A stretch of DNA of 64,000 nucleotides from Longimicrobiales bacterium (lineage in GTDB: Bacteria > Gemmatimonadota > Gemmatimonadetes > Longimicrobiales > Gaopeijiaceae). Under the pieces are notes generated by a model. The model had not been told where the DNA came from, ran no database searches, and was given only the letters and a program-made list of their open reading frames with translations. Every line of letters begins with the position of its first letter. Position 1 is the first letter of the stretch. The position numbers and the translations under genes are program-made. Location of the stretch: positions 2,528,001 to 2,592,000 of the forward strand of contig OZ242008.1 of NCBI GenBank assembly GCA_965204735.1, read 5' to 3'. This document shows, piece after piece, positions 15,960 to 35,200 of this stretch.

Positions 15960-17218
15960 GGACGAGGCGGGCGGACGCCGACGCCGGCGGCATCGGCCGG
16001 GTCGAAGCGGGCCGCAACTTCGCCGATGGCCACGGCCGCGTCGTCCAGCTGGGCGTCGGTGACGTAGGGCGCCGGCCCCAGGCGGAGGAGGGCGCCCCGG
16101 TGGTCGACGTGGACGCCCCGGCCGCGCAGGGAGCAGGCGAACTCGCCGGCGAAGGGGGTCGTCAGCGCGAGAAACCCGCCCTTGCGATCGAGGGGAACGG
16201 CCCGGTCGCGGGAGAGGACGGCAGGATCGAGGTCGAGCCCGTCGACGGCCTCTGCCAAGCGCCGGATTTGGGCCAGGCCCGAGGCTCGAAGCCGGTCGGG
16301 GGTCAGGCCGTGCTCCCGGAAGAAGTCGAAGACGGCGACGGCGCGGTAGTGGCTCGTGGGGTCGTACGTGGATCCGGCGAAGCGGAGGTGGCCGGCGCCG
16401 TATCGGGTCGGAGTGCTCGGCCATGGAGGGCCGCCGACGCCTGGCGGTGCATCGGGCGCGCCGGTCGCTTGCGCCGGAGGCTCGGCCAGCGCCCCGAACT
16501 CAGCGAACCAGCCGGTGAGGACGGGGCGGAGGGCGCACGCCGTCGGGAAGCGCAAGAAGCAGTTGCCTTCCCCGAGCTGGCAGTACTTGTAGCCGCCGCC
16601 CACCACGAACGCGCCGTCCAGCCCCATCTTGCGCACCGAGAACGGAACGGCGGCCAGGGAGTGGTAGGCGTCCACGAGAAGCTCGGCGCCCACTCGCGCG
16701 CAGGCTTCGGCGACGCGGTCCAAGCCCTCGACGATCGTGGCGTCGCGGAAGAGCACCGACGAAAGCAGGACCGCCGCCGTCCGGTCGTCCACTGCCTCTG
16801 CAAGCCGGTCGGCGACATCTGCTTCGGCGGGCGCCGCCGCGACTTCGACGCCCTCTTCGCGCAGCCGGCCCAGCTGGCGGTGGATCGTGCGAAACTCCCC
16901 GTCGGTGGTGACCAGGCGCGGACGCTCCCGCAGGGGCAGCGCCGACAGAAAGCGGGTCACGAGCTCGTGCGTGTTCTGGCCCAGGGCGATGTGGCCGTCC
17001 GGGTCGTCGAGAAGCCGCCGGAAGCCGGAGCGCACCTTGTCGGCCATCGCGAACGCTCGATCCCACTTGTCGTCCACCAGATCGGCCGCGTCCAGCCAAG
17101 CTTGCTGCTGGGCGTCGAAGGCCACGTCGGGCCATGCTTGATGCGAATGGCCCGTAAGCAGGACCCGCTCCCCGACTCGGAATCGGGCGTAGCGGCGGGC
17201 CAGGTCGTCAGGCCGCAC
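15956..17218 (-). CDS. kynU: Kynureninase (PLP, class V fold)
   Basis: LLTGHSHQAWPD, VDAYHS, GGGYKYCQLGEGNCFLR, TGWFAEF, RLGPAPY; same cluster as TDO; start approximate. Confidence 0.82.
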   Translation of the reverse strand: MRPDDLARRYARFRVGERVLLTGHSHQAWPDVAFDAQQQAWLDAADLVDDKWDRAFAMADKVRSGFRRLLDDPDGHIALGQNTHELVTRFLSALPLRERPRLVTTDGEFRTIHRQLGRLREEGVEVAAAPAEADVADRLAEAVDDRTAAVLLSSVLFRDATIVEGLDRVAEACARVGAELLVDAYHSLAAVPFSVRKMGLDGAFVVGGGYKYCQLGEGNCFLRFPTACALRPVLTGWFAEFGALAEPPAQATGAPDAPPGVGGPPWPSTPTRYGAGHLRFAGSTYDPTSHYRAVAVFDFFREHGLTPDRLRASGLAQIRRLAEAVDGLDLDPAVLSRDRAVPLDRKGGFLALTTPFAGEFACSLRGRGVHVDHRGALLRLGPAPYVTDAQLDDAAVAIGEVAARFDPADAAGVGVRPPRP

Positions 17219-20200: not shown

Positions 20201-20360
20201 GTCTGTGGACATAGCTCCTTCCGGTGTCGTCGTAGCCTTCCGCGCACTCCTTCAAGTCGGCGAGCATTTCTTGGTTCGTCTTGTAGCCGAACTGCTCGTG
20301 AAGCCACGCAAGAAGGACTAGCCGCCGATCCAGCTTCGCCTTCGAGGCCCGCTTCGTCAC
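17208..20360 (-). CDS. res: Type III restriction enzyme Res subunit (SF2 helicase + PD-(D/E)xK nuclease)
   Basis: MATGSGKT, VDEGH, YSATF, QLFGRGVR, FYPDFILW...FVEPHG; coupled to mod. Confidence 0.88.
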   Translation of the reverse strand: MTKRASKAKLDRRLVLLAWLHEQFGYKTNQEMLADLKECAEGYDDTGRSYVHRRLESRGRRTKAPPEDLARYDQNIRTHLRAVNEGRGRPIVFRYFQHAAALYTELYLDWALRRPADLVESLNEVAYKRNQYKTYDDRFPTIQASDLRRLAYWMATGSGKTLIMHVNYRQFLHYNARPLDNIVLVTPNEGLTRQHIAEMRASGIPCRRFDLDDSGLLALDRDAVQVVEITKLVEKKRGGGASVPVEAFEGVNLVFVDEGHRGTGGEAWRKAREAVGKGGFTFEYSATFGQALASARNQKLTAEYGKSIGFDYSYRYFHGDGYGKDFRILNLGEEGEQDATDTLLLGNLLSFYEQMRAFDEHEPAIRSYNVEHPLWVFVGGTVNAVYSLRKQKRSDVLTVARFFHRVLANREGWAVETAARLLEGGSGLRRADGRDVFADRFASLREDGLSAEALYRDVLARVFHASASGGLHLGQMRGSRGEIGLRASTADRCFGVIYIGDVGAFVKLARADDPGFVFEHDVVGDSLFEGIADSEGGVNVLVGARKFMEGWNSWRVANMGLMNIGRTEGSQIIQLFGRGVRLRGKGFGLKRSSALDGEHPPDVKLLETLDIFAVRADYMFQFRNYLEQEGVDTGDVLELRLDAKPNRAFLDRGLLVPRMPDERSFVDEEDVFFERDEAIRVRVDKSVRVRTLDADEDGIRDRDAWSGRSQSIPAASLALVDWQKVYLELVEYADSRGLANLALGPQAARRIVEADEGRALYDLIADDHVSVPRSFEDVQLLEDAVLTVLKKYVDKFCRVRRERWDTEQVVYDKVSERDANFPRYAVRVPRGETALVEAIRELIADGDRIYRMATADLPGIYFDRHLYQPLLVDRDARIRTTPPGLNAGEALFVEDLRARCRAHGGDFGKGRELFLLRNLTRGRGIGFFDTRGFYPDFILWIKEGPAQRVVFVEPHGMVHAGAYRHDDKARLHERLPALARKAAARSRLDHVSLDSYIVSNTPYEELRRSYDDGTWTRERFAQAHIVFPERTDEYDYISIILGRRAAAGAA

Positions 20361-23300
20361 GACGCACCTCCCGAACGTAACATGCGCCTCTTGAAGAGCG
20401 GGTCCAGCGCCGTCGCTTCGCGGATGAGAGAGCTCCCGTTCACGAGCACTTGATCGGCCCCTTCGGCGAACTTCTGGGCTGCCACGAACTCCTTGTCCCG
20501 GACGAAATCCGCCTCGGCCCAGCCCTCCGTGTCCCGCCAGATCACGACGATCCGCCGCCTGCCGACGGTTCCGGCGTGCACAAGGTACCGCCGTCCGTCG
20601 TCGTGGTGGACTCGGCGCGTCGCCACGCGAAGGCCCAGCAGGTAGGCGAACGTCTCCGGGAGGTCAGCGACGACCTCGCGCACTTGGCCGTTCGCCCCCG
20701 CACGAAGCTTGTACGAGAAGGGCTTGTCCAGATCGAACACGTTCAAGAGCGTCGCGCTGTCCTTCGTCTCCCACCGGAGCATGTACCTGAGGACGTAGCC
20801 TTCGAGCTCCAACGCCCGCTGGCCCGCTTCGCCGTCGAAGCTGATGTTGCTCAGCGCGTCCTCGTAGCTCTCGATCCGCACGTACTTGACGACCTGCGGC
20901 CCCCTCGCCGCTTCCTCCGGCGTCGCCACGCGCTTCGGCTTGCCGTCCTTCCACTCGGGCGCGAAGACGACCTTCTTCAGCCGAGGCAGGAGCATCTGGT
21001 CAAAGTACTCTCCCATCTCCACCAGAACGAACCGCCGGGTGCCCCCGTCGCGGCGGTTGAGATCGACGACCGCGTGTGCCGTGGTGCCGGAGCCGGCGAA
21101 GTAGTCCAGCACTGTTCCGTCGTGACGCGCCAGCAACACGGCGCACCGGTCCACGAGCTGCGTCGGCTTGGGCTTGATCTCGTCGATCAGCCCCCTCATC
21201 TCGCCGTTTCCGAAAAGGTTCAGCAAGAGCTTGGTGGCGTCGGTCGTCGTCTTCACGTCGTCCCACAGCGTCGTGGGCACCATGCCCTTGGCGCGTGCGT
21301 GCCGCAGGTAGCGCTTGCACATCGGCTTGGCCCTGCCTGACCGCCCGAACACAATCTGGCCGGCAGCGAGCAGCCGCTCCGTCTTGGCCGCGTCGAACCG
21401 CCAGCATCGGCCCTCCGGCGGCCAGTGCTCTTCGCCCGTCTCGGGGTTGACGATCGGATACAGCAGGTTCTCTCGAACATTGGGCGCGTCCATGGGGTCC
21501 AGGACCCAAGGCCCCTGCGGATCGTCGTCCGGGTTGGAGAACTTCGAGTCGACGCGCGGCAGTCGGAACTCCGTCTTCTTGGATTCCAGGAACGGCCTGT
21601 CGGCGGCAAAGAAGGTCGTGTGGTTGGTGGAGATCGAGATCAGCGCGTCGTTGGACACCGACTTGCGACTGTTCCAGATGACGTCGGCCACGAAGTTCTC
21701 GCGGCCCCACGTCTGCTCCAGGACCCCTCGCAGCACGGCGTACTCCCCGTCGTCGGTGCTGACGAAGATGCCCGCGCGCCGGGACGCCAGCCTCCGCGAA
21801 GCGGCCAAGCGGTCGTTCATCATCGACAGCCACGAACTGTGCCGATAGTTGTCCTTGTAGACGAACTTCTCGTTCTGGCCGGTGTTGTAGGGCGGGTCGA
21901 TGTAGATGCAGTCCACTTCGCCCCGGTGCCGTTCCTCCAACAGGCCGAGCGCCTGCCAGTTCTCGCCGTGCACCAACGTGCCGGCGGTCATGCCGTCCAG
22001 GTCCTCCCACGAGCCGAGAAGCCGGTCGACGAACGACTGGGAGAAGTGCCGCGTGTCGAGGACGAGCGTCGGATGCTGCCGGAGGAAGGCCAGCCGCGCG
22101 CCCGCTTTGTCCTGGGCCGAGTTGAAGAGGTCGAGGCGTTCTTCGTCCACGCACAGCAGCTCGCGCCACTCGTTCCACTGTTCTTCGCACTCCGCGATCT
22201 CCGGGTGGAACGCTTCGCCTATGCACCTTAGCGTGACGCAGTACTGGGTCTCCGTTACGAACTTGCGCTTCTCCCACAGCATCTTCTGAAAGGACTCGAT
22301 CTGGTCCAAGAAGTCGATGATCCTATGGCCCACGGTTCCGATCACGCGCACCGTCTGAAACCAGCCCTCCGATCTTTCCTCGCCGGCGGTCAGGACGTTC
22401 GCCACGTTCATGACTTCGTTCTTGAGGTAGAAGTCGAGCTCGCCGGTCAGAAACCTCTTCAGGTCCTTGTGAACGAAGTAGTCCGACGTGTTGCGCCTGG
22501 TGTACTGCCGAAGGTGGTGCTCGAGAACCGTCACCACTTCCCCGCCGGCCGTGGTTCGGCGCTCCGCGGTCAGGGCGGCGTGTGCGCGCGTAGCGTTGCT
22601 CGTCTTCGCCAGGTGCTCCGGTATCGCGACGAGCGTGCGAGCAATGATCTCTTCCTGTGCGCCGTTGACGCCCTTCTTGCTGTTGCCGGGGCTCTCGTCC
22701 TTCGTCAACGGGCGGTACTCGAACGGAACCGCAAGGTGAGAGGCCTGGTCGTCCCACGCGATCTCGTCGATCCGAGGCACGAAGAAGCGCCGGTCGCCTT
22801 TGACGTTGTCCTGTTCGACGTCGGCGGCCGCCAGGCGGAAGGCGACGCTGACGCCCTTGGCGTTGAATGCGTAGTCGCGGAAGACCTCCGCCGTCTTGAC
22901 GTAGTACTGATCCTTGTTGGACCAGTGCAGAAGAACCTCTTCGCCGTTGTACGGGACGGCGTAGCGCTGGCGCATCGAGTACCGGCGCTGGGACATGAAG
23001 TCGCCGCGGTCGTAGTATCGGCCGAAGAAGGTGAGCAGGTGGTTGTAGATGTCGAGTTCGATCGCCGTCCGACTTCTGGCGCCGCTCAACGACAGCTCCC
23101 GAAAGCGGAGGTACTTGCGACCCAGCACAGTGTCGTCGTGGGGAGACTTGAGCGATCCGTCGGGCGCGATGGCGTCGGGTGCAATGTATTCCTTGATCTG
23201 CGTGGCCGCTTCCTCCATCTCCTCGGCCGCCCAAGCCTGCTCTTTGAGGATGCCTCGGTCGAGCTCCTCTTCGACGGCAGCGGGCAGGTCCTCGACCACG

Positions 23301-23455
23301 AACTTCTCGATCACGTCGCGCTTGTGGTTCAGTATGCGGTAGACGCCGAAGTCGAGGTCCGCCGATTCGAACTGGAACAGCTCGCGCAACAGGTTCTGGA
23401 ACTTCACGCAAGCGGGGTTGGGCTGCCCGCCGGGCGTCGCTTCTGCGACCGTCAT
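20357..23455 (-). CDS. mod: Type III restriction-modification Mod subunit (large m6A methyltransferase)
   Basis: LFQFESADLDFGVYRILN N-terminus, YIDPPYNTG, KPTQL, LDYFAGSGTT; directly upstream of res. Confidence 0.88.
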   Translation of the reverse strand: MTVAEATPGGQPNPACVKFQNLLRELFQFESADLDFGVYRILNHKRDVIEKFVVEDLPAAVEEELDRGILKEQAWAAEEMEEAATQIKEYIAPDAIAPDGSLKSPHDDTVLGRKYLRFRELSLSGARSRTAIELDIYNHLLTFFGRYYDRGDFMSQRRYSMRQRYAVPYNGEEVLLHWSNKDQYYVKTAEVFRDYAFNAKGVSVAFRLAAADVEQDNVKGDRRFFVPRIDEIAWDDQASHLAVPFEYRPLTKDESPGNSKKGVNGAQEEIIARTLVAIPEHLAKTSNATRAHAALTAERRTTAGGEVVTVLEHHLRQYTRRNTSDYFVHKDLKRFLTGELDFYLKNEVMNVANVLTAGEERSEGWFQTVRVIGTVGHRIIDFLDQIESFQKMLWEKRKFVTETQYCVTLRCIGEAFHPEIAECEEQWNEWRELLCVDEERLDLFNSAQDKAGARLAFLRQHPTLVLDTRHFSQSFVDRLLGSWEDLDGMTAGTLVHGENWQALGLLEERHRGEVDCIYIDPPYNTGQNEKFVYKDNYRHSSWLSMMNDRLAASRRLASRRAGIFVSTDDGEYAVLRGVLEQTWGRENFVADVIWNSRKSVSNDALISISTNHTTFFAADRPFLESKKTEFRLPRVDSKFSNPDDDPQGPWVLDPMDAPNVRENLLYPIVNPETGEEHWPPEGRCWRFDAAKTERLLAAGQIVFGRSGRAKPMCKRYLRHARAKGMVPTTLWDDVKTTTDATKLLLNLFGNGEMRGLIDEIKPKPTQLVDRCAVLLARHDGTVLDYFAGSGTTAHAVVDLNRRDGGTRRFVLVEMGEYFDQMLLPRLKKVVFAPEWKDGKPKRVATPEEAARGPQVVKYVRIESYEDALSNISFDGEAGQRALELEGYVLRYMLRWETKDSATLLNVFDLDKPFSYKLRAGANGQVREVVADLPETFAYLLGLRVATRRVHHDDGRRYLVHAGTVGRRRIVVIWRDTEGWAEADFVRDKEFVAAQKFAEGADQVLVNGSSLIREATALDPLFKRRMLRSGGAS

Positions 23456-23561: not shown

Positions 23562-24359
23562 CTACAGCGACGAGCGGACCGCCCACAGGTCGGGAAACGC
23601 CGGAGCGCCGAGGGTGGAGCGCAGGTAGGCCGCGCCCGAGCTGCCTCCGGTGCCGGGGCGGCCGCCGATCGTGCGCTCCACCATCTTCACGTGACGGTAG
23701 CGCCACTCCTGCACCCCCTCGTCCAAGTCCACCAAGCGCTCGCACAGGCTGGACAGCTCGGGATCGGTCCGGTAGATGCTCACGAGCGTCTCCTGCAACT
23801 TCTCGCTGGGCGCCACGGGCTCGGTCACGTCGCGCTGCAGCACGTCGGTCGGCACGGCGTATCCCCTGCCCGCCAAGAAGCGGACGAACCGGTCCCACAG
23901 CGACGGCGCGTCGAACCGGCTCTCCAGCCGCCCGCGCTCGGAAGAGTCGTCGGGGAACCCCCGCATGATCCCGGGCTGCTTGCGCCCCAGCAGGAACTCC
24001 AGCTCCCGGAACTGGGCCGACTGGAAGCCGCTGGCGGACTCGAGGCGGTCCCGAAACGAGTGGAACTCCACCGGCGTCATCGTCTCCAGGATGTCCAGCT
24101 GGGCGACGAGCACCTTGAGGACGGTCAGGACGCGCTTGAGCGTGCCAGCGGTTCGCGACGCGTCTCCCGCCTCCAAGAGCTTGCCCGCGTGGTCGAGCTC
24201 GTGCAGGACGACCTTGAACCAGAGCTCGTAGACCTGGTGGACCACGATGAAGAGCATCTCGTCGTGCTCCTCCGGGTCCGACAGGGGCGACTGAAGGGAG
24301 AGGAGCTCGGGAACCTTCAGGTAGGTCTGGTAGGTGACGAAGCTGGAGTTGTCGCTCAT
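23562..24359 (-). CDS. kynA: Tryptophan 2,3-dioxygenase
   Basis: TYQTYL, HDEMLFIVVHQVYELWFK, SGFQSAQFRELEF, WRYRHVKMVERTIG..PGTGGSSG. Confidence 0.95.
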   Translation of the reverse strand: MSDNSSFVTYQTYLKVPELLSLQSPLSDPEEHDEMLFIVVHQVYELWFKVVLHELDHAGKLLEAGDASRTAGTLKRVLTVLKVLVAQLDILETMTPVEFHSFRDRLESASGFQSAQFRELEFLLGRKQPGIMRGFPDDSSERGRLESRFDAPSLWDRFVRFLAGRGYAVPTDVLQRDVTEPVAPSEKLQETLVSIYRTDPELSSLCERLVDLDEGVQEWRYRHVKMVERTIGGRPGTGGSSGAAYLRSTLGAPAFPDLWAVRSSL

Positions 24360-26776
24360 TGGCTTGCTCCCGCCGAGGGTCTGCCGTCCCCGCCGATCCC
24401 CAGCCGCGGGGTGAACCCCTGCAACGCTTGATCGTACTGGTCGGGCCACGCCGGGGGATACCCCAGGGCGTAGGCGGCGTGCCGCGTCCAGTAGGGGTCC
24501 CAGAGGTGCGCGCGCGCCATGAGGCAGAGGTCGGCCCGGCCCGAAGCGACGATGCCGTTCACGTCCTCGAACGACGAGATCGCTCCTACGGCCATTGTCG
24601 CGACCCCGACTTCGTGACGGATTCGGTCGGCGAAGGGCGTCTGGAACTGGCGTCCGTAGCGGGGCCGCTGGCAAGGGACGGTTTGGCCCGCCGAGACGTC
24701 CACCACGTCGCATCCGCAGCTCTTGAAGGCCCTGGCGATCTCCACGGCGTCCTCCGGCTCGTTGCCGCCGGGCCACCAGTCCACCGCCGAGAGCCGCACC
24801 GAAACGGGCTTCTCCTCGGGCCACGCCGCCCGCACCGCCGCCAGCACTCGGAGCGGGAAGCGCAGCCGACCGTCCAGGCCGCCGCCGTATTCGTCCTGCC
24901 GCAGGTTGGTCAAGGGGGACAGGAAGCTGGCGAGAAGGTAGCCGTGGGCCATGTGGAGCTCGACGATGTCGAAGCCGGCCTCCTCCGCCATGGCGGCGCC
25001 CCGGGCGAAGTCGTTCACGAGCGCGTCCATGCCGTCTTCGTCCAGCTCGGCGGGAACGGGGCTGTGGTCGAAGTACCCGATCGGCGACGCCGACACGATC
25101 GGCCATCCCCCCTGCTCCAGCGGCTCGTCGGCGCCCTCCCAGTGGAGGCGGGTCGAGCCCTTGCGGCCGGCGTGGCCCAGCTGGACGCCGATCTTGGCGT
25201 GGGTGCGGCGGTGCACGAACTCCACCACCCGACGCCACGCGCCCACGTGCTCTTCCTTGTACAGGCCCGCGCAACCCGGCGAGATGCGCGCAAGCCGGTC
25301 CACGGCGGTCATCTCCGCCATCACCAGCCCCGCTCCGCCGACGGCCCGCGAGCCCAGGTTGACCAAGTGCCACTCGTCCACGGCGCCGTCGCTGGCCGAG
25401 TACTGGCACATCGCCGACACGCCGACCCGGTTGGGCAGGACGAGCTCCCGCAGCCGGAAGGGGGTGAAGAGGGGCGGCGGCGGTCGGGCGTCGCCGGGCG
25501 CCCGCCGGATCCCCAGCGAGGCCTCGTGGCGCGCGATGCTCCGACCCGCCTGCTCCTCGGCCTTGCGGGCGACCCAGCGGTCCATTTCCTCGACGAACGT
25601 CGGGTCCCGCTGCCGAAGGTTCTCGTGGGAGACGCGCAGGCTTCGCGTCAGGAGCGAGAACGCGAACTGAATCGGCTCCAGGCGCATGTGGCGTTCCGTG
25701 TCCTCGAACCACTGGAGGCTGGCTTGGGCGGCGCGCTGGAGCGACTCGACGGCGGGGCGGCGCTCGGCTTCGTACTCGGCCATGGCCTCGCCCACGTCGT
25801 CGTGCCGGTCGAGGGCCCCGGCCAGCGCGATGGCGTCCAGCATGGCAAGGCGGGTGCCGGAGCCGACGGAGAAGTGGGCGGTGTGGGCGGCGTCGCCCAG
25901 AAGGACGACGTGGGCGCCGGCGCCGCTTGGGGGCTCTGCGGGGCCGGCCTCGGCAGTCGGGAACGCATCGGAGTGCGTGCCGCCCGCCGACGCCCAAGTG
26001 GACCAGCGCGCGGTTCGGATCGTCGGGAACCGGCGCCAGCGGGAGCGGTTGCCGACCAGCGGGCAGCCCCCCAGCTCGCGGGCGAAGAGCCGGGAGAGGA
26101 ACGAGATCGTGGTGGGCTCGTGGTCGACCGACATGCCCGCCCGCCGCCATGCGTTCTCCGTGGTCTCGACGATGAACGTGGAGCGGCCGGCGTCGTCGTA
26201 CTGGTAGGCGTGAACCCGCCAGAGGCCGTGTTCGTCCTCCTTGAAGTAGAAGGAGAAGGCGGGAAAGGGCTTGGCGACGCCCAGCCAGACGAAGCGGTTG
26301 GGGCGAAGGTCGGTCTCGGGCTGGAAGGCGTCGGCCAAGCACGTCCGAACGCGACTGCCCGCGCCGTCGGCGGCGACCACCAGGTCGGCCGCCTCCAAGT
26401 GGGGAGACAAGCCCGTCCACGCCGACTCGAAGCGGAGGTCCACGCCGAAGTCGCGGCAGCGGCGGTGGAGCAGCAGGAGGAGCTCGCGGCGGGAGATTCC
26501 GGCGAAGCCGTGCCCGGTGGAATCCAGCCGGCGGCCCTTGTAGTGGACGTGGACGTCGTCCCAGTGGTGGAAGCGCGCCGCAATGGCGGCGTGGGTCTCG
26601 GGGTCGGCGGCCGCCACCTCGCGCAGCGTGTCGTCGGAGAAGACCACGCCGAAGCCGAAGGTCTCAGCCGGGGCATTGCGCTCGAAGACGTGGACTTGGC
26701 GGCTGGGGTCGGCCTTCTTGAGGAGAACGGCGGCGCAGAGGCCTCCCGGACCGCCTCCGATCACGTGAATCCGCAC
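24356..26776 (-). CDS. abmA: Bifunctional anthraniloyl-CoA (2-aminobenzoyl-CoA)/salicylyl-CoA monooxygenase-reductase
   Basis: N-terminal FAD monooxygenase (GGGPGG, TFGFGVVFSD, GDAAHTAHFSVGSGTRLAM) fused to an old-yellow-enzyme domain (MCQYSA, QLGHAGRK, HMAHGYLL). Confidence 0.88.
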   Translation of the reverse strand: MRIHVIGGGPGGLCAAVLLKKADPSRQVHVFERNAPAETFGFGVVFSDDTLREVAAADPETHAAIAARFHHWDDVHVHYKGRRLDSTGHGFAGISRRELLLLLHRRCRDFGVDLRFESAWTGLSPHLEAADLVVAADGAGSRVRTCLADAFQPETDLRPNRFVWLGVAKPFPAFSFYFKEDEHGLWRVHAYQYDDAGRSTFIVETTENAWRRAGMSVDHEPTTISFLSRLFARELGGCPLVGNRSRWRRFPTIRTARWSTWASAGGTHSDAFPTAEAGPAEPPSGAGAHVVLLGDAAHTAHFSVGSGTRLAMLDAIALAGALDRHDDVGEAMAEYEAERRPAVESLQRAAQASLQWFEDTERHMRLEPIQFAFSLLTRSLRVSHENLRQRDPTFVEEMDRWVARKAEEQAGRSIARHEASLGIRRAPGDARPPPPLFTPFRLRELVLPNRVGVSAMCQYSASDGAVDEWHLVNLGSRAVGGAGLVMAEMTAVDRLARISPGCAGLYKEEHVGAWRRVVEFVHRRTHAKIGVQLGHAGRKGSTRLHWEGADEPLEQGGWPIVSASPIGYFDHSPVPAELDEDGMDALVNDFARGAAMAEEAGFDIVELHMAHGYLLASFLSPLTNLRQDEYGGGLDGRLRFPLRVLAAVRAAWPEEKPVSVRLSAVDWWPGGNEPEDAVEIARAFKSCGCDVVDVSAGQTVPCQRPRYGRQFQTPFADRIRHEVGVATMAVGAISSFEDVNGIVASGRADLCLMARAHLWDPYWTRHAAYALGYPPAWPDQYDQALQGFTPRLGIGGDGRPSAGASQ

Positions 26777-26877: not shown

Positions 26878-28305
26878 TCACGGCGTCCCCTTCACCAGCG
26901 CACCGCCCACGATCAGCTGCTGGATCTCCGTGGCGCCCTCGTAGATGCGCAGTGCGCGCACGGCCCGGTAGAGGCGGTCCACCGGATGGTCGGCCAGCAC
27001 TCCCCTGCCCCCGAGCACCTGCACCGCCCGGTCGACGACCCTCTGGGCCGCCTCGGTCGAGAACGCCTTCGCCATCGCCGCCTCCACCGTGACCCGCTCC
27101 GCGCCGCGATCGGTCTCCCAGGCGGCCCGGTACGCCAGCAGCCGTCCCGCGGTCAGGTCGATCGCCGAGTCGGCCAGCTTCTGGCGAACCAGCTGAAAGG
27201 AGCCCAGCGGCCGTCCGAACTGCTCCCGCGTCCGGGCGTGGCGGACCGCCTCCCAGAGCGCCCGCCCGGCCATGCCGTTGGCCGCGGCGGCGACCGTGGG
27301 ACGGAGCCGGTCCAGCGTGGCCATGCCGATCTTGAAGCCGTCGCCCTCGTCGCCCAGCCGAGCCGTCGCGGGAACCCGACAGCCGTCGAACCGAACCTCG
27401 CCGAGGGGATGCGCCGTGCTCATGACAAGTTCTTTGACAAAATCAATGCCTATTTTGTCCGCTGAAAGCACGAAGCACGACAGAGATTCACGGGAATTGG
27501 TCGCTGCGGAGCCAGTCTTGACAAATAATACATAGAATTTGGCGATACCCGCATTGGAGATGAACGCCTTGCCGCCGTCGATGCGGTAGTCGTCGCCGTC
27601 GCGTACCGCGGTCGTTGCGATCGAAGCGACGTCCGAACCCGCGTCCCATTCGGTCATTGCGAAGGCGCCCACGGCTTGGCCCGAGAGCGCGCGGGCGCTC
27701 CACGCGACCGGGCTGGGGTCGGCGCAGTCGGGGTGACGGCGGTCGGCGTGACCAAGGTCGGCGCAGTTGAGATCGGCGTGGCTAGGGTCGGCGCGGTCGG
27801 TGTGACCGCGGTCGGCGCGGTTGAGATCGGCGTGGCTGGGGTCGGCGTGACCAAGGTCGGCGCGGTGGAGGTCGGCGTGGCTGGGGTCGGCGTGACCAAG
27901 GTCGGCGCGGTGGAGGTCGGCGTGGCCGGGGTCGGCGTCGCTGGCCGCTTCGTCGCCGAAGATCAGGGCCGGGGTGGCGCTGAGCGCTTGCAGCGCGAAG
28001 GCCGCGTCCGCCAGGGGCGACCACCATGCCAGCGCTTCCCGAGCGACGAGGCACCCCCGCACGTCGCGGGTCGCGATCGGCCGGAAGAGCCCGGCTTGGC
28101 CCATGAGGGCGACCAGCTCCTGGGTGCGCTGCCGGGCGAGCGCGTCGTCGTCGGGGTCGGGCGCGTCGCGGAGGCGCCGGCGGCAGAACGCCGCCACTTC
28201 TTCTCGGTACTCTCGGTGGCGCGGCTCCAGGAACGCGGCGACGGGTTCCAGGGAAAGTCCCTCGCCGTCGAAGACGCCGTGGCCGCGCTCCGCCCCTTCA
28301 CTCAA
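26878..28305 (-). CDS. Acyl-CoA dehydrogenase (AbmD-like) with a repeat insertion
   Basis: AFAMTE..AGSD, GGKAFISNAG, REQFGRPL, IYEGATEIQ. Confidence 0.9.
   Translation of the reverse strand: MSEGAERGHGVFDGEGLSLEPVAAFLEPRHREYREEVAAFCRRRLRDAPDPDDDALARQRTQELVALMGQAGLFRPIATRDVRGCLVAREALAWWSPLADAAFALQALSATPALIFGDEAASDADPGHADLHRADLGHADPSHADLHRADLGHADPSHADLNRADRGHTDRADPSHADLNCADLGHADRRHPDCADPSPVAWSARALSGQAVGAFAMTEWDAGSDVASIATTAVRDGDDYRIDGGKAFISNAGIAKFYVLFVKTGSAATNSRESLSCFVLSADKIGIDFVKELVMSTAHPLGEVRFDGCRVPATARLGDEGDGFKIGMATLDRLRPTVAAAANGMAGRALWEAVRHARTREQFGRPLGSFQLVRQKLADSAIDLTAGRLLAYRAAWETDRGAERVTVEAAMAKAFSTEAAQRVVDRAVQVLGGRGVLADHPVDRLYRAVRALRIYEGATEIQQLIVGGALVKGTP
27710..27936 (-). repeat. In-frame 15-bp tandem repeat encoding AD(L/P)xH/R pentapeptides
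   Basis: ADPGH ADLHR ADLGH ADPSH ADLHR ADLGH ADPSH ADLNR ADRGH ... ADLNC ADLGH. Confidence 0.9.
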
Positions 28306-29149
28306 AGCGCGGGGACCGCTTCTCCCGGAAGGCGTTGTACGCTTCCCGGAAGTTGGGGTTCAGCATGCAGGCGGCCTGGGCGCGGGCCTCGTCCTCCAGC
28401 GCGCCCTCCAGCTCCATGTGGGCCTCGCGGTTGAGGGCGTCCTTCGTGACTTCCAGGGCGAAAGAGGGTCCTCGGGCAAGCGCTTCGGCGAGCTCGGCAG
28501 CGGCGGTCGGCACGTCCGCGTCCGGCACGACCCGGTTGTAGAGGCCGATCCGGTGGGCCTCGTGGGCGTCCACGAAATCGCCCGTCACGAGAAGTTCGGT
28601 GGCGCGTCCCAGGCCGACGATCCGCGGGAGCATCCACGCCGCTCCCATGTCGGCGCCGGAGAGCCCGACCCGGGTGAAGAGGAAGGCGATGCGGGCCGAC
28701 TCGGCGGCGACTCTGACGTCGCACGCCGCGGCGATCACGGCGCCCGCCCCGGCCACCGTGCCGTTGAGCGCCGCGATCACGGGCTTCCTGCACCTGCGGA
28801 TCGCCAGCACCAAGTCGCACGTCGCGCGGGTGAACTCCAGCAGTCCCTCGTACTCCCGTTCGAAGAGGGCGCCGATGATCGACTCCACGTCGCCCCCGGT
28901 GCAGAACCCGCGCCCGGCGCCGGTGATCACCACCGCCCGGACCTTCGGGGCCGCGTCCAGCGACCTGAACGTCGATCGCAGTTCGTCGTACACCTCGAAG
29001 GTCAGGGCGTTGAGCCGCTCCGGCCGGTTGAGCGTAATGCGCGCAACGGCGGTGGCGTCGTCGAAGTCCAGCAGGAAGGAGTTGGGGGCGATCAGCTCCA
29101 ACGGGCGCTCCCGGTCGGCCGGCGGGTCCGCGGAGCGGGTCGGGCGCAC
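28298..29149 (-). CDS. Enoyl-CoA hydratase family protein (AbmC-like)
   Basis: ITLNRPERLNAL, FCTGGD, KPVIAALNG.VAGAG, FTRVGLSGADMG. Confidence 0.9.
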   Translation of the reverse strand: MRPTRSADPPADRERPLELIAPNSFLLDFDDATAVARITLNRPERLNALTFEVYDELRSTFRSLDAAPKVRAVVITGAGRGFCTGGDVESIIGALFEREYEGLLEFTRATCDLVLAIRRCRKPVIAALNGTVAGAGAVIAAACDVRVAAESARIAFLFTRVGLSGADMGAAWMLPRIVGLGRATELLVTGDFVDAHEAHRIGLYNRVVPDADVPTAAAELAEALARGPSFALEVTKDALNREAHMELEGALEDEARAQAACMLNPNFREAYNAFREKRSPRFE

Positions 29150-29159
29150 AGGGCTCGGT

Positions 29160-30380
29160 TCATCGGAACGCCGGAACTAGGTAGTCCACCACGACGCGGA
29201 CCGTCTCCCGCTCGTAGCGCTCGGCCCCTCCGTCTCGGCCGACGCCGCGCCAGTCGTTGGTGGCGACGACCACCAGGTCCAGGCGGGGAACCACGAAGAC
29301 GTACTGGCCGCCGTACCCCCAAGCGAAGTGAAGGGGCTCCTGCGCCTCGGGCACCCTCCACCAGAGGAGACCGTAGGAGATGCCGGCCAGCGCCCCGAAG
29401 TCGGACCGCCACTGGAAGTGCGGTCGGAAGGAGAGGTCCACCCACTCCCGAGGAAGTATCTGCCGGTCGAGGCTGGCGCCGCCCTGCAAGTAGAGCTGCC
29501 CGAAGCGGGCCAAGTCCCTTGGACGGAGGTCGAGTCCCGCGCCGCCGTTGTGGTATCCGCCGGGCAGGGGCTCCCAGCGCCCGAGGGCGATCCCCGTCGG
29601 ACCGAAGAGGGCGTCCTGGGCCAGCTCGGGAAGCCGCATCCCGGTCGCGCGCTCGACGGCCACGCCCAGCAGGTGGACGGCGGCGGAGTTGTAGGTGAAC
29701 CGGGCTCCGGGCGGATGGGCCAGCGGCCGATCCAGCAGGAAGCGAAGGTGGTCGTCGGATCGCATCCACTCCGAGTAGGAACCGAACCCTCCGCTCTCGT
29801 CCCACTCGAAGCCGCTCGTCATCGTCAGCAGGTGGCGAAACGTGATCTCCCGCTTGGCGGGGCCGATCTCGCCGACGGCAGGGGCGAGGTAGCCGGCCAC
29901 CGGGTCGTCCAGGCTCACGATCTCGCCGCGCTCCAGGGCAACGCCGGCCAGGGCCGAAACGACGCTCTTGGTCACGGAGCGGACGTCCGCAAGGCTGTCG
30001 GGGTGTCCGACTCCGAAGTACTCCTCCACCGCCAGTCGCCCGTCCTTGACCACGAGCAGGCTCTGCAAGCGGTGGTTCAGGCGCGCCCGCTCGATCCCTT
30101 CGGCCACCAGGTCGGGCGAGCCCCCGACCGCCTCGATCGACGCGGTGGCCCACGGGGCGGCCAAGTCGATTCGGGCCGGGGTCCGACCGCCGGGACCCGC
30201 CAGGTCTCCCGTGCACGCGGCAAGGGCGACGAGGGTCGCCGCGGCCCATGCGGCCGGGGCTCGGAGCGTGGGGCCGGCCGGCCGAGTCGGCGCCCGGATG
30301 GCGGCTGGCGGGACCGTCCATGTGGTCCAGGATCGGAGCGCAGGGCCGGCCGGGGTCGTCGCGGGCGCGGCTCGATTCAT
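29160..30380 (-). CDS. Serine hydrolase, beta-lactamase class C/NylB-like; probable lipoprotein
   Basis: SVTKS (SxxK), LLTMTSG, FTYNS, GYGGQ; lipobox-like LAAC. Confidence 0.85.
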   Translation of the reverse strand: MNRAAPATTPAGPALRSWTTWTVPPAAIRAPTRPAGPTLRAPAAWAAATLVALAACTGDLAGPGGRTPARIDLAAPWATASIEAVGGSPDLVAEGIERARLNHRLQSLLVVKDGRLAVEEYFGVGHPDSLADVRSVTKSVVSALAGVALERGEIVSLDDPVAGYLAPAVGEIGPAKREITFRHLLTMTSGFEWDESGGFGSYSEWMRSDDHLRFLLDRPLAHPPGARFTYNSAAVHLLGVAVERATGMRLPELAQDALFGPTGIALGRWEPLPGGYHNGGAGLDLRPRDLARFGQLYLQGGASLDRQILPREWVDLSFRPHFQWRSDFGALAGISYGLLWWRVPEAQEPLHFAWGYGGQYVFVVPRLDLVVVATNDWRGVGRDGGAERYERETVRVVVDYLVPAFR

Positions 30381-30460
30381 GCCGGAAGCGCGTCCAAGGC
30401 CTTGTCCGTCAGCGTCGTCCGCAGGTGTCGTCGGGGGGCGGCTCGATTCATGCCGGAAGC
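30367..30460. repeat. 23-bp perfect direct repeat duplicating a stop/start junction
   Basis: GCGGCTCGATTCATGCCGGAAGC at 30367-30389 and 30438-30460. Confidence 0.9.
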
Positions 30461-30942
30461 ACCGCCGTCGCCTCCACCTCGACCAGCGCTTCCGGGTGGA
30501 CGAGCGCGCTCGCCTCCACCAGGGACATCGCCGGGAAGTGCTTGCCGAACACCGCCCGGTACTCGGCGCCCACCTCGGAGAGGGAGGCGCGGTAGGTGGG
30601 CATGTCGGTCACGAAGATCGTGAGGCGGCCCACGTCCGCGATCCGGCCCCCGGCCTTCTCCACCACCCGGGCCACATTGGCCAGTGCCGCGCCGAACTGC
30701 TGCGCCAGCCCCTGGGCGATCCCGCCGTCCGGGCCGGCGCCGATCTGGCCCGCGACGAAGAGGAGGCGGCCCCCGACGGGCGCCAGCATCCCGTTGTTCC
30801 AGCCTCTCGGAGCGCCCAGGGCCGCCGGGTTGACGATCGACCAAGCCGCGGCTCGCTCGTCGCGGGCGCCGGCCGAGACCCCGGGAGCGGACTCGAACTG
30901 CTGCTCGGCGCTCGGGCGCGCCGGGGACGCTTCGGTGGTCAT
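30448..30942 (-). CDS. RidA/YjgF family protein (AbmF-like)
   Basis: LFVAGQIG, FGKHFPAMSLVE..ALVHPEALVEVEATA. Confidence 0.9.
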   Translation of the reverse strand: MTTEASPARPSAEQQFESAPGVSAGARDERAAAWSIVNPAALGAPRGWNNGMLAPVGGRLLFVAGQIGAGPDGGIAQGLAQQFGAALANVARVVEKAGGRIADVGRLTIFVTDMPTYRASLSEVGAEYRAVFGKHFPAMSLVEASALVHPEALVEVEATAVLPA

Positions 30943-31715
30943 CGCAGGAGAACGCCGCCGTCCAGCACCAGGGCGGCGCCCTGCAGCGACGACGCCTCGT
31001 CCGCCATGAACGTCGCGACCGCGTGAGCGACTTCGGCGGGTTGGAGCAGTCGGCCGTCGGGCAGCGTTCCCGCAACCTCTTCGCGGACCGCCCGGGGCTT
31101 TCTGCCCGTGCGGCCGGCGATCTTGGCGACGGCTTGGTCGGTCATCGGGGTGTCCACGTAGCCGGGACAGACCGCGTTGGCCGTGACGCCGGTGCCGGCG
31201 AGTTCGGCGGCCAAGCAGCGGGTCATCCCCAGCAAGGCGTGCTTGGAGGCGGAGTACGAGGTGACGTAGCGCGCGCCGGAGAGGCCGGCAACCGATGCGA
31301 CGTTGACGATGCGGCCCCATCGCCGTTCCAGCATGGCGGGCAAGAAGGCCTGGGAGACGAGAAGGGGTCCCGTGGCGTTGACCCGGTGGACGGCTTCCCA
31401 CTGCTCCAACGTCACCTTGAGAAAGGGCGCCGAGTCGGCGATCCCCGCGTTGTTGACGACGATGTCCACGGCGCCTGCGAGCTGCCGTGTCCGCTTGGCC
31501 AGGGCATGGACGGACGCAGCGTCGGAGACGTCGCACGGGACGGCGTGGGCGCGGGCGCCCTGGGAGCGCAGGTCGGCGGCCACGGCCTCGATCTCGCTCG
31601 CGCTTCGGGCGACGACCACGACCCGCGCGCCCGCTCGCGCCAGCGTCTGCGCCACCGCCGGGCCGATGCCCCGGCCGCCGCCGGTGACGACCGCGGTCTT
31701 CTCCGCCAGCCTCAC
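30939..31715 (-). CDS. SDR family oxidoreductase (AbmB-like hydroxyacyl-CoA dehydrogenase)
   Basis: TGGGRGIG, NNAG, YSASKH, VCPGYVDTPMT. Confidence 0.9.
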   Translation of the reverse strand: MRLAEKTAVVTGGGRGIGPAVAQTLARAGARVVVVARSASEIEAVAADLRSQGARAHAVPCDVSDAASVHALAKRTRQLAGAVDIVVNNAGIADSAPFLKVTLEQWEAVHRVNATGPLLVSQAFLPAMLERRWGRIVNVASVAGLSGARYVTSYSASKHALLGMTRCLAAELAGTGVTANAVCPGYVDTPMTDQAVAKIAGRTGRKPRAVREEVAGTLPDGRLLQPAEVAHAVATFMADEASSLQGAALVLDGGVLLR

Positions 31716-32734
31716 GGCAGGCGCTCCGGCCCGGGCTCGAGCGAGCCGACCCGACCGCCGGCCGGGGCTGGCTCCACAGCCTTCGCGGCGCCGTGGTCGT
31801 TGGCGTCGTGTCGAGGTCCGCAGGCGCCGATTCCGCTCCGGGGCTCCACCGTCTTCGCGACGCCCTCGTCGTCGTTGGAGCCCGGTGGTCGTGGGGCCCG
31901 GCACGCTCCGGCGACGCCCAGCCGTTCCGCGACCGCGTCCGCGACGATCCGGCCCAGGACCCCAAGGGTCTCGGCTCCCTCTTCGGGCGTCGCGGCGGCC
32001 GGATCGCCGCAGTAAGCCTCTGGGACGCCTGCCTCGCCGAAGGTGGCGGCTCCGTTCCTGTGGGCCAGAGAGAGCGAGATCGGGCGGGGAGGCAGGGTCC
32101 GCCGGGCGTCTTCGCGCACCAGCGCCGGCGCAGCCGCCATCAACACCGAGCTTTCGTACTGCCCCGCGTGGCAGGCACCGCTCTTGAACTCGTCGGTGAG
32201 GCGCAGCGCCCACGGCTTGCGCGTGACGTCGGGAAAGATCACGGGCATGACGCGCTCGCTCGGCTCGCCCGCGCCGGCCGGCCCTTCGCAGTCGGCGACC
32301 CCCTGCCGAAGCGACGCCAAGTGGGCCGGGTCCAGGTGCGCGTTCACCACGACCATCGCCGCCACGCCCTGCCCGGCCAACGCCGCTGCGATGTCGCTCA
32401 CCAGCGCGGACACCGTCTCGGGACAGATCGAGATCGTGCCGGGGAACTCGGCCGCGAACGGCGCCGCGGCATAGGCCAACGGGGGAAGCGCCAGCGGACG
32501 GAAGCCGAGGGCGTCGAGCTCGGCGAGCGCCGCGTGGACCGCCGCCTGGGCGATGATCACGTCGGTGGCCAGGGGCAGGTGCGGTCCGTGAGCCTCCACG
32601 GCGCCTACGGGCAGGAGGGCGACCACGGGAGGCCGGAACGCCGAGTCGTTCTCGATCGCGGGCGACCCGCCCCGTCCCAGCCCGGCCGCCGCCAAGGCGG
32701 TCCATGTCGCGTGTCCCCACTCCCGTTCGTCCAT
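31712..32734 (-). CDS. Creatininase-family amidohydrolase
   Basis: LPVGAVEAHGPHLPLATD, FPGTISI, VNAH, HAGQYESS, GDPAAATPEEG. Confidence 0.88.
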   Translation of the reverse strand: MDEREWGHATWTALAAAGLGRGGSPAIENDSAFRPPVVALLPVGAVEAHGPHLPLATDVIIAQAAVHAALAELDALGFRPLALPPLAYAAAPFAAEFPGTISICPETVSALVSDIAAALAGQGVAAMVVVNAHLDPAHLASLRQGVADCEGPAGAGEPSERVMPVIFPDVTRKPWALRLTDEFKSGACHAGQYESSVLMAAAPALVREDARRTLPPRPISLSLAHRNGAATFGEAGVPEAYCGDPAAATPEEGAETLGVLGRIVADAVAERLGVAGACRAPRPPGSNDDEGVAKTVEPRSGIGACGPRHDANDHGAAKAVEPAPAGGRVGSLEPGPERLP

Positions 32735-32939
32735 TGACCAGCCTTTCATGGTCCCTAATCTGAAGAATGCCGCCGGCTCGCGCACGCGGCCCCGACCGCG
32801 TCGGCGGGAGCAAGGACGACCCTGCCCCGGCCGTCGCAGGCACGCGGCCCCGGCTTGCCCAGGCAGCACCTGCACGATTCGTTGCCCCGCCCGCCGCGCT
32901 GGCGCCAAGCCGGGCCACATCTCCCGAGCTCCCCGCCGA

Positions 32940-34613
32940 ATGACCCGACATCCGCCCCGCCGCCTCAACATCGCCGACTACTTTCTGGACGACCGGATCC
33001 GGGAAGGCATGGGCGAGCGGACCGCGATCCGCACATGGGACGGCGCCGTGGCCTACGGCGAGCTCCAGGCCCGGGCCAACCGCTTCGCCAACGTCTTCGC
33101 CGAGCGGGGCGTGGAGCCGGAGCAGCGGGTTCTCGTCGCCCTGCCCGACGTGCCCGACTTCGCGGCGGCGCTCTTCGGCGCCCTCAAGCGGGGTGCGGTG
33201 GCAGTGATGGTCAATCCGCGGCTCCCCGCCGACCGGATCCGCGACCTCTTCGACTACGTTCGGCCCAAGGCAGCGGTGGTGCACGCGGACCAGGCGGCGA
33301 CGTTCCGCGAGGCGACCAAGGGCGCGCGCCACGCCCCCGGGCTGCTGACGATGGGGGGACCCCTCGACGACGGCGGTCCAGTCGGCCGGGACGGCGGTCC
33401 AGTCGGCCGCGACGGCAACCCCGTCGGCCGGGGCGGCAGCCCTGTTGGCCGGGGCAGCGGCCCCGTCGGAAGCGAGCGCGATTCGCCCCGCCGCCGGGCC
33501 GCCAGCGGCGACCGGGCCGTCGCCGCCGCGAGCCCCGACTTCGAGAACTTCCCGTCCCATCCGAGCGATCCCGCCGTCTGGCTCTTCTCCGGCGGCACGA
33601 CCGGCCGTCCCAAGGCCGTGGTGCAGAGTCACGCTTCCTTCGTCAACTCCACCGGGCGCTACGCCAAGGAGTTCCTGGGCTACGGCCCGGACGACGTCGC
33701 GCTGGCGGCGCCCAAGCTGTACTTCGGCTACGCCACCGGGTCGAACCTCTTCTTCCCGCTGGCGACCGGGGGATCGGCAGTCCTCTTCCCGGAGCGGTGC
33801 ACGGTGGACGAGCTCTTCCGCCAGATCGCCCGGCACCGTCCCACGATCCTCGTGGCCGTGCCCACCATGGTGAACTACATGGTGTCGCACCCGGAGGCCG
33901 CCGGGCAGGACCTGAGCTGCCTGCGCCTGGCCACGTCCGCCGGCGAGCCCCTGCCTCCCGAGCTGCACCGCCGCTGGGACGAGGCCTTCGGCGTCGAGCT
34001 CCTCGACGGCCTGGGGACCGCCGAGATGTGGCACGTCTTCATCTCCAACCCGCCGGGGGGAGCGCGCCATGGCACGCTGGGACGGGCCGTCCCCGGCTTC
34101 GAGGTCAGCCTGCGCAACGAGCGGGGCGAAGAGGCCGCGCCCGGCGAGGTGGGGCGGATGCGCGTTCGGGGCGGCTCGCTGGGGAACGGCTACTGGCAGC
34201 GGCCCGAGGAGACTCGGCGGGCGTTCGTGGGACCATGGTATGTTTCGGGCGACATGATGACCCGCGACGCCGACGGCTGCTTCGCCTACCGCGGCCGGGC
34301 CGACGATCTGCTCAAGGTCAAGGGCAAGTGGCTGTCGCCGACGGAGGTCGAGGAGTGCATGCTGGAGTGCCCCGAAGTGAGCGAAGCCTCGGTCGTCGGG
34401 ACCACGACGGCCGACGGGCTGGCCGTGGCCGAAGCGTTCGTGGTCCCTGCGGCGAGCGTCGACGCGGAGCGGGCCGGAGCAGCGGTCCGGCGCCTTCTGG
34501 CCCGGCGCTTGCAGTCCTACAAGCACCCGCGAAAGATCCACTTCCTCGAAGAGATGCCCCGCACCCACCTGGGCAAGGTGGACCGGGGCGCCCTGAAACG
34601 GAGCGCGCCATGA
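32940..34613 (+). CDS. Benzoate/2-aminobenzoate-CoA ligase family (AbmG-like)
   Basis: LFSGGTTGRPK, KLYFGYATG, SAGEPLP, DGLGTAEMWHVFIS, GRADDLLKV, PRTHLGK. Confidence 0.85.
   Translation: MTRHPPRRLNIADYFLDDRIREGMGERTAIRTWDGAVAYGELQARANRFANVFAERGVEPEQRVLVALPDVPDFAAALFGALKRGAVAVMVNPRLPADRIRDLFDYVRPKAAVVHADQAATFREATKGARHAPGLLTMGGPLDDGGPVGRDGGPVGRDGNPVGRGGSPVGRGSGPVGSERDSPRRRAASGDRAVAAASPDFENFPSHPSDPAVWLFSGGTTGRPKAVVQSHASFVNSTGRYAKEFLGYGPDDVALAAPKLYFGYATGSNLFFPLATGGSAVLFPERCTVDELFRQIARHRPTILVAVPTMVNYMVSHPEAAGQDLSCLRLATSAGEPLPPELHRRWDEAFGVELLDGLGTAEMWHVFISNPPGGARHGTLGRAVPGFEVSLRNERGEEAAPGEVGRMRVRGGSLGNGYWQRPEETRRAFVGPWYVSGDMMTRDADGCFAYRGRADDLLKVKGKWLSPTEVEECMLECPEVSEASVVGTTTADGLAVAEAFVVPAASVDAERAGAAVRRLLARRLQSYKHPRKIHFLEEMPRTHLGKVDRGALKRSAP
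33369..33473 (+). repeat. In-frame 21-bp tandem repeat (GGPVGRD-like, about 5 copies)
   Basis: DGGPVGR DGGPVGR DGNPVGR GGSPVGR GSGPVGS. Confidence 0.85.
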
Positions 34614-35200
34614 GCCCCGTCGCCCCCTGCATGCCCGTGATCGTGGGCTCCGTCCGCCGGGGCCGACTGTCGATTCGAGTCGCCCGCTTCATGCAGAGAC
34701 GGTTGCAGGAAGCCGGAATGGAAGCGCCCCTCCTCGACTTGGCCGAGATCGACCTCCCCATCATGGAGGAGCGTCTGCACATGCGCGACGACCCGCCCCC
34801 CGGACTGGTGCCGTTCGCCCGGGCCGTCGCCGAGTCCGACGGCGTGGTGGTCGTGAGCCCCGAGTACCACGGATCGATCCCCGGCGTGCTGAAGAACGCC
34901 CTCGACTACCTGCGGGGCGAGTGGGAGCGCAAGCCCGTGGGGATCGTCACCGTGTCCGGCGGCGGCTTCGGCGGCGTGCAGGTCCACAACCACCTTCAGC
35001 TTCTCTTCCTGCGGCTGAAGGCCGTGCCCGTGGCGGCGGTCGCCGTGTCCAACGTGGGCGAAAGCTTCGACGAGGACGGCAACGCCATGGAGCAGCGGTA
35101 CGAAGCCGCCTTCGTCCGGTTCCTGGACACCCTCTCGTGGTACGCCCGAGCCCTCTCCGCAGCCGAGGCGGCCGACGCGGAGGCGTCGCAGAGCAAGTAG
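34610..35200 (+). CDS. NADPH-dependent FMN reductase
   Basis: GSVRRGR, SPEYHGSIPGVLKNALD, KPVGIV; ATGA overlap with the CoA ligase. Confidence 0.9.
   Translation: MSPVAPCMPVIVGSVRRGRLSIRVARFMQRRLQEAGMEAPLLDLAEIDLPIMEERLHMRDDPPPGLVPFARAVAESDGVVVVSPEYHGSIPGVLKNALDYLRGEWERKPVGIVTVSGGGFGGVQVHNHLQLLFLRLKAVPVAAVAVSNVGESFDEDGNAMEQRYEAAFVRFLDTLSWYARALSAAEAADAEASQSK

Follow-up and report, generated by a model that had tools for sequence, protein, structure and literature searches.

A creatininase-fold protein, named CRE here and encoded on the minus strand at 31712..32734 of the window (i.e., the whole 64,000-nucleotide stretch of Longimicrobiales DNA that was analysed), is a candidate aryl-N-deformylase, which probably does the job of the kynurenine formamidase KynB with an unrelated fold. 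CRE occurs in tryptophan clusters of several poorly studied groups of bacteria, nearly always in genomes without the usual deformylase, and this is the reason to consider that it probably does that job; the comparative support from sequence data for CRE replacing KynB's function is good. If this is true, then the missing step between tryptophan and anthraniloyl-CoA would be filled, in a route omitted by a curated catabolic database: GapMind (PMC9007349) leaves out tryptophan degradation by way of anthraniloyl-CoA "due to a lack of knowledge". A function would also be provided for a widespread subfamily now labelled "creatinine amidohydrolase", and a non-homologous formamidase class would be added, possibly with another order of steps. 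Besides Gemmatimonadota and Acidobacteriota, CRE occurs in one or more other phyla; it is present in 63/201, 25/201, and 16/151 genomes sampled from three phyla whose members are mostly uncultured. In the literature covered (full texts of mostly non-subscription papers), no creatininase-family protein was described as a formamidase or deformylase of tryptophan catabolism, and nothing was found on the CRE subfamily.

Creatininase Fold and Bounds of the CRE Subfamily

The open reading frame of CRE consists of 340 aa when read from the ATG at 32734; translation could also begin in frame at the ATG at 32749. The creatininase-fold identity of the protein and the intactness of its metal-ligand residues, both proposed in the sequence-only reading, are confirmed. 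The Pfam profile Creatininase (PF02633) matches residues about 36–261 with 156 bits (gathering cut-off 31.3; E 1.4e-45), and E47-x-H49...D58, H133, and E194 align with E34/H36/D45/H120/E183 of creatininase in solved structures. We take these five positions to bind metal as they do in creatininase. The variant NAHLDPAH loop pointed out in the same reading is also present, with D135 occupying the creatininase E122 position. Since this position varies among the 197 subfamily members (E in 102, D in 93), D135 is a conservative variant. Of the 197 members, 196 retain the E..H..D ligands and 192 have a Cys before the HAG. The AlphaFold model of CRE, built from a 53-sequence alignment (pLDDT 93.5), resembles creatininase with Z 23.2 and rmsd 3.4 Å over 227 aligned residues (VIA; Foldseek E 3e-13). 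Clear structural matches of the model belong to the creatininase family alone (Z 22–23), and the next unrelated fold appears at Z 10. The tail of the protein, comprising the last ~95 residues (31712–31990), lies outside the Pfam match and the region aligned with homologues and is non-conserved.

CRE represents a large, sharply bounded, uncharacterised creatininase subfamily, whose members are publicly annotated as "creatinine amidohydrolase" or "creatininase family protein". A genome scan for relatives gave at least 324 stretches, of which the best 80 were kept; among the matches listed, the closest come from Longimicrobiales (Gemmatimonadota) MAGs. Profile scores split cleanly, with 63 of 201 genomes of the own phylum at E<1e-70 and the remainder at E>1e-31. 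The subfamily motif is EF(K/R)SGACHAGxYE, and a more divergent NxHLEP branch belongs to the subfamily as well (hhalign probability 100). A search of the plasmid collection gave no member. Among the equivalog profiles, the best score was obtained for MftE (TIGR03964; 93.4 bits, under the cut-off of 172), followed by creatininase (TIGR04448; 73.5 bits, cut-off 235) and IolN (NF041098; 25.9 bits, cut-off 245). IolN, a creatininase-family enzyme, opens a cyclic diketone, and ArfB, the archaeal riboflavin-pathway N-deformylase, takes the formyl group off a ring-borne formamide. The ArfB profile (NF033501) did not match the window CRE at E 0.1, and it was the weakest NCBIfam match, reaching 12 of 53 CRE members with a best E of 0.002. 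No match of CRE to the KynB/cyclase family (TIGR03035, PF04199, HxGTHxD) was found in the Pfam and NCBIfam scans.

Gene Cluster and Genome of the Window

The order of genes on the minus strand is CRE-SDR-RidA-(serine hydrolase)-ECH-ACAD-abmA-TDO-(type III RM)-kynU. As the sequence-only reading described, CRE overlaps the start of the SDR dehydrogenase (30939..31715), a GTGA being shared by the TGA stop of CRE and the GTG start of SDR. Profile scans identified a RidA/YjgF-family enamine/imine deaminase-like protein (30448..30942), an enoyl-CoA hydratase family protein (ECH; 28298..29149; PRK08258, 372 bits vs cut-off 330), an AbmA-like anthraniloyl-CoA monooxygenase/reductase (24356..26776; PRK08255, 1061 bits vs cut-off 1078), and an acyl-CoA dehydrogenase whose gene contains an expanded in-frame repeat (ACAD; 26878..28305). 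The tryptophan 2,3-dioxygenase (TDO; 23562..24359; PF03301) and the kynureninase-like protein (15956..17218, start approximate; 1qz9, E 2.5e-8) noticed earlier are both there, the latter belonging to a divergent "KynU2" clade. On the plus strand, divergent from CRE, a benzoate-CoA-ligase-family ligase of a CRE-accompanying clade (32940..34613; TIGR02262, 416 bits vs cut-off 375) is followed by an NADPH-dependent FMN reductase (34610..35200), which goes with the cluster in 21 of the best 80 of at least 324 loci. Neither a sigma-70 promoter match nor a terminator match was found between CRE and the ligase. The beta-lactamase-fold serine hydrolase (29160..30380, minus strand) is a local insertion; it was tried as the hydrolase of the cluster and rejected, as it stands beside CRE in 1 of 197 loci.

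A type III restriction-modification mod/res pair (17208..23455, minus strand) of 6.2 kb lies between TDO and kynU and has a GC content of 0.65 vs 0.68–0.74 for the cluster genes. The stop of res overlaps the likely start of kynU; kynU itself, 79% identical to its closest relative, seems undamaged. Past kynU, another DNA methylase and a nuclease of the Mrr type were observed (15051–16424; up to 15033). Expanded in-frame repeats are present in coding genes, namely in ACAD (27739–27942; 15/45-bp units), in the ligase (33369–33469; 21-bp x 4.8), and in the tail of CRE (31712–31990); by eye, another is visible in the N-terminal part of the cyclase ORF of locus L001.

The genome of the window (G000) is a single 4.14-Mb contig, 98% complete. 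The earlier claim of a missing kynB stands in that no kynB orthologue was found in this nearly complete genome; what has to be added is one distant, lipoprotein-like cyclase outside the window. This sole cyclase-family gene (G000:C1:4114101-4114619), located 1.55 Mb from the cluster, was rejected as KynB: it reaches 70–78 bits on TIGR03035 (cut-off 223), its N-terminus is lipoprotein-like, and it forms a long isolated tree branch. It sits 4 kb from another creatininase-family paralogue, near a transposase-like ORF (G000:C1:4114101-4119255). An HGGxW motif scan of the genome revealed no AFMID-like hydrolase, this being a weak test that leaves room for other alpha/beta-hydrolases. On the subfamily profile, CRE reaches 352 bits, and the three other creatininase paralogues of G000 reach 24–72. 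A search of G000 for a 3-hydroxyanthranilate dioxygenase gave nothing over the cut-off, so there is no sign of a de novo NAD branch.

CRE Loci, Gene Order, and Fusions

In the best 80 of at least 324 loci (tblastn), SDR was found in 68, RidA in 66, ECH in 65, the ligase in 63, ACAD in 62, AbmA in 51, kynU in 45, TDO in 43, and a cyclase in 0; a true KynB used as the query also gave 0 matches. Within 450 bp of CRE in 197 loci, many of them short metagenome contigs, the neighbour is the ligase in 120, SDR in 71, AbmA in 9, TDO in 7, ACAD in 4, RidA in 3, and kynU in 2. A cyclase anywhere in the locus was seen in 1 of the 197; it is of the lipoprotein type and about 5 kb away. A homologous cluster with both kynB and CRE, named in the sequence-only reading as the case that would speak against it, was not found in these 197 loci.

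Four or more branches of the CRE tree contain direct links to upper-pathway genes. These links include kynU-kynA-cre operons (L274, L276, L280, L281, L189), cre-kynA-kynU in L265, and lig-cre-kynU-kynA in L199, as well as a clean CRE-kynureninase fusion (P0099), which is a single sequence from one contig. Fusions of CRE to SDR, RidA, and a PaaA/C-like domain were also found; the ligase-CRE fusion P0273 was rejected as evidence, since the sequence appears frameshift-garbled. Stand-alone CRE-ligase pairs exist in G207, G215, and G337, and the CRE-accompanying ligase is nearest to benzoate-CoA ligases.

Clusters that contain the other AbmA type (16 analysed) include ECH, ACAD, the ligase, and nearly always SDR and RidA, and CRE is present in 0/16. 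Mirror clusters of abmA, kynA, and kynB without CRE exist; in G123, kynB and then kynA follow directly. The ligases of KynB-type clusters and the 48 ligases linked to CRE belong to different clades. Since the ligase clades differ, the exclusion between CRE and KynB may partly reflect two inherited module types.

Several arrangements were observed in individual loci. A 4HBT-type thioesterase is placed directly downstream of CRE in L187, L205, and L207, and one contig (L022) carries two CRE copies about 9 kb apart. Some CRE clusters (L274:5259-7446, L276, L143, L162, L219, P0272) contain a PaaA/PaaC-like (PF05138) gene, fused once to CRE, and an OYE-type reductase as a separate gene. The same combination is seen in G394, where a full AbmA match is lacking; this could point to a different oxygenase for the aroyl-CoA.

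Distribution of CRE and KynB

In the own phylum, Gemmatimonadota, 201 genomes of at least 90% completeness were sampled. CRE is present in 63 of them, together with TDO in 61/63 and AbmA in 61/63, the exceptions (G007, G115, G116) being fragmented assemblies; it was found in 2/80 TDO-negative and 2/117 AbmA-negative genomes. KynB of at least 170 bits was found in none of the 63 CRE genomes. Among 121 TDO-containing genomes, it was detected in 0/61 with CRE vs 27/60 without CRE, and at a threshold of 100 bits in 8/61 vs 36/60; both thresholds were picked after the data had been seen, and Fisher values for such counts overstate the association because related genomes are not independent. The 79 genomes with TDO and AbmA include 52 with CRE only, 16 with a KynB-like gene only, 8 with CRE and a cyclase of 134–163 bits, and 3 with neither. 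Families f2, f4, and f7 each contain some genera with CRE and others with KynB. In the 22 genomes with the other AbmA type, CRE is present in none. The counts include unpublished-flagged genomes (G178, with CRE; G153, with KynB; G093, with neither; and G053), and the conclusions hold without them.

Because the thresholds are post hoc and TDO-adjacent KynBs go down to 160–166 bits, a tree of cyclases was built. The 134–163-bit cyclases of CRE genomes fall into a separate clade (99/95), together with second copies from KynB genomes and cyclases of TDO-less genomes, and those of own-phylum CRE genomes are never located beside TDO or kynU. This orphan clade is widespread (L225-L236, L243, L244, L285-L295), scores 134–168 bits on TIGR03035, and was never seen beside tryptophan genes; its members are likely mis-annotated as kynurenine formamidase. 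The cyclases of 115–163 bits, held by 9 of the 63 own-phylum CRE genomes and by Acidobacteriota as described below, could nevertheless have formamidase activity.

In Acidobacteriota, CRE is present in 25 of 201 genomes and in 0 of the 29 with KynB of at least 170 bits; of the 24 CRE genomes searched for TDO (all except the unpublished G494), 22 have it. A cyclase of 115–159 bits is encoded by 13 of the 25. Twelve of these cyclases were fetched: 10 belong to the orphan clade, 2 lack a firm placement (G512 and G530 are ambiguous in the cyclase tree), and none is near TDO or kynU (~3 kb). A 168-bit cyclase of G500, a genome without CRE, groups with the orphan clade as well, so the score alone does not equal orthology. 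Short AbmA matches in the Acidobacteriota loci correspond to a separate OYE gene, and full AbmA is encoded elsewhere in 4/5 genomes. The phylum of G201, a deltaproteobacterial-type MAG, contains 16 genomes with CRE and 18 with AbmA (12 with both) among 151. KynB and TDO were searched there in 26 chosen genomes (22 of the 151, plus 4 others): a cyclase of >50 bits was found in 0/16 CRE genomes, a TDO match, several of them partial, in 14/16, and an above-cut-off KynB on the abmA/TDO contig in 4/6 genomes with AbmA and without CRE. The co-localisation with kynA/kynU and the anti-correlation with kynB, suggested as a check in the sequence-only reading, thus largely hold in the samples of three phyla, apart from the weaker cyclases in 9 and 13 CRE genomes.

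Kynureninases and Genomes That Lost CRE

The kynureninase of the window has 1qz9 as its best PDB match, reaches 23 bits on TIGR01814, and gives no Pfam match. In 80 chosen genomes, a kynureninase of this type was found in 14/16 with CRE and in 13/60 with TDO and without CRE, of which G026 alone has KynB; among the genomes with TDO and without CRE that contain a KynB-like gene, it is present in 1/36. The divergent clade thus goes with the absence of KynB, and it may accept N-formylkynurenine. The idea that CRE requires the divergent KynU2 was weakened, as CRE pairs with three kynureninase clades. In one clade, sister genes stand beside KynB (G480, G065) or CRE (G394, G408, G432, G512).

Not every genome that has TDO and kynureninase but no KynB contains CRE. 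Of 42 genomes with TDO and without AbmA, 21 have neither CRE nor KynB, and 11 of these, 6 of them single-contig, keep the window-type kynureninase. In single-contig G067, G157, and G129, remnants of the cluster are kept (e.g., kynU-TDO-ECH-FMN reductase), and CRE and abmA are lost; a ligase above the TIGR02262 cut-off was found in 0/5 closed remnant-type genomes. Since the remnant genomes lost CRE, abmA, and the ligase, CRE is kept only where the aromatic product is used further. Such a pattern is expected if kynureninase frees alanine from N-formylkynurenine and CRE deformylates the aromatic product, and it is also expected if CRE is a lower-pathway enzyme. The loss of CRE with the ligase and the abm module, as well as its tie to the CoA ligase, the tightest of all, fit deformylation of N-formylanthranilate(-CoA) at least as well as that of N-formylkynurenine. 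It is also worth recording that the remnants differ among L089, L091, and L094 (G067, G129, and G157, of the window's family), with the abm module lost piecemeal, and that in G186 (L101), a genome lacking both CRE and KynB, TDO lies beside genes that by eye look KMO-like and 3-HAO-like.

Proposed Reaction and Competing Explanations

In the proposed mechanism, TDO would convert Trp to N-formylkynurenine. Then, either CRE would deformylate N-formylkynurenine ahead of kynureninase, or the divergent kynureninase would split N-formylkynurenine into N-formylanthranilate and alanine, and CRE would next deformylate N-formylanthranilate or its CoA ester. Kynureninases able to cleave N-formylkynurenine are known, and arylformamidases (EC 3.5.1.9) act on both N-formylkynurenine and N-formylanthranilate. 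As a binuclear-metal amidohydrolase, with the chemistry of the creatininase family as a model, CRE would direct a metal-activated water to the formamide carbonyl, and formate would leave. Free anthranilate or anthraniloyl-CoA would enter the AbmA monooxygenase route through the partner ligase, after which SDR, RidA, ECH, and ACAD could complete the ring breakdown. As the substrate of CRE, N-formylanthranilate or its CoA ester is slightly favoured, although tentatively, and N-formylkynurenine is possible but doubtful. It is conceivable, and proposed here with reserve, that CRE constitutes a third arylformamidase class, after the cyclase KynB and the alpha/beta-hydrolase AFMID, acting in a re-ordered pathway via N-formylanthranilate. 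The original suggestion of an N-formylkynurenine formamidase is consequently upheld in part: co-occurrence with TDO and avoidance of KynB speak for it, but the specific substrate is not established, and CRE is lost while TDO and kynureninase stay.

The sequence-only reading offered hydrolysis of a ring intermediate as its alternative, and this stays a minority reading of low probability. In its worked-out form, rather unlikely as well, CRE would be a lower-pathway hydrolase of a C–C or C–N bond in the non-aromatic AbmA product, where the substrate could, although improbably, be 2-amino-5-oxocyclohex-1-ene-carbonyl-CoA or a derived dione, by analogy with the opening reaction of IolN. CRE tracks AbmA as tightly as TDO (61/63; 2/117 AbmA-negative genomes), is lost together with the abm module, heads the SDR-RidA-ECH-ACAD operon with SDR adjacent in 71/197 loci, and is fused to SDR and to RidA; a possible cyclohexanedione-carboxyl-CoA ester was detected in Arthrobacter Rue61a (PMC3534580). 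However, the other AbmA type occurs without CRE in all 22 own-phylum genomes that have it, and clusters of that type contain no conserved substitute hydrolase (a thioesterase in a minority). KynB-type abm clusters already include SDR, ECH, ACAD, the ligase, and RidA, with CRE in 0/16, so a lower-pathway step that would call for CRE is not apparent. The IolN score is 26 bits vs a cut-off of 245, and such a role would leave unexplained the genome-wide KynB avoidance, the kynU-kynA-cre operons, and the kynureninase fusion.

A role as an aroyl-amide/N-acyl hydrolase, feeding the ligase from anthranilamide, aroyl-glycines, or N-acetylanthranilate, is improbable. It would agree with the ligase being the most constant neighbour of CRE (120/197), at times in a stand-alone pair (G207, G215, G337), with the closeness of this ligase to benzoate-CoA ligases, and with the presence in the family of MftE, which cleaves a peptide (PMC10885120). 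It does not, however, predict KynB avoidance, and CRE is nearly restricted to TDO-bearing genomes (2/80 TDO-negative). The public labels "creatinine amidohydrolase" and "creatininase family protein" would fit an ordinary creatininase or an unrelated passenger, but this explanation is very improbable in view of the 73 bits vs the creatininase equivalog cut-off of 235, the context conserved across phyla, and the three distant paralogues present in G000.

Comparison With Known Systems

The 2-aminobenzoyl-CoA (abm) pathway of Azoarcus evansii (PMC4539516) shares with the window the ligase, the monooxygenase/reductase, and the beta-oxidation enzymes. The window cluster differs in being joined with TDO and a divergent kynureninase, in the benzoate-CoA-ligase-like clade of its ligase, and in the addition of CRE. 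With creatininase (PDB 1q3k/3a6j; TIGR04448), CRE shares the fold, the E-H-D/H/E ligand set, and about 24% identity; unlike creatininase, it has D or E followed by Pro at the E122 position, its own motif, and another genomic context. ArfB belongs to the same family, but the match of CRE to it is marginal and riboflavin context is lacking. MftE and IolN are family members as well, whereas the conserved neighbours of CRE include neither mycofactocin nor inositol genes. KynB (TIGR03035) shares the proposed reaction and the pathway position, and it occupies an analogous slot in abmA and kynA clusters (G123, G323, G278). Its sequence family and fold are unrelated to CRE, and its orthologues were not found in CRE loci. 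CRE, for its part, is not retained in genomes without the abm module.
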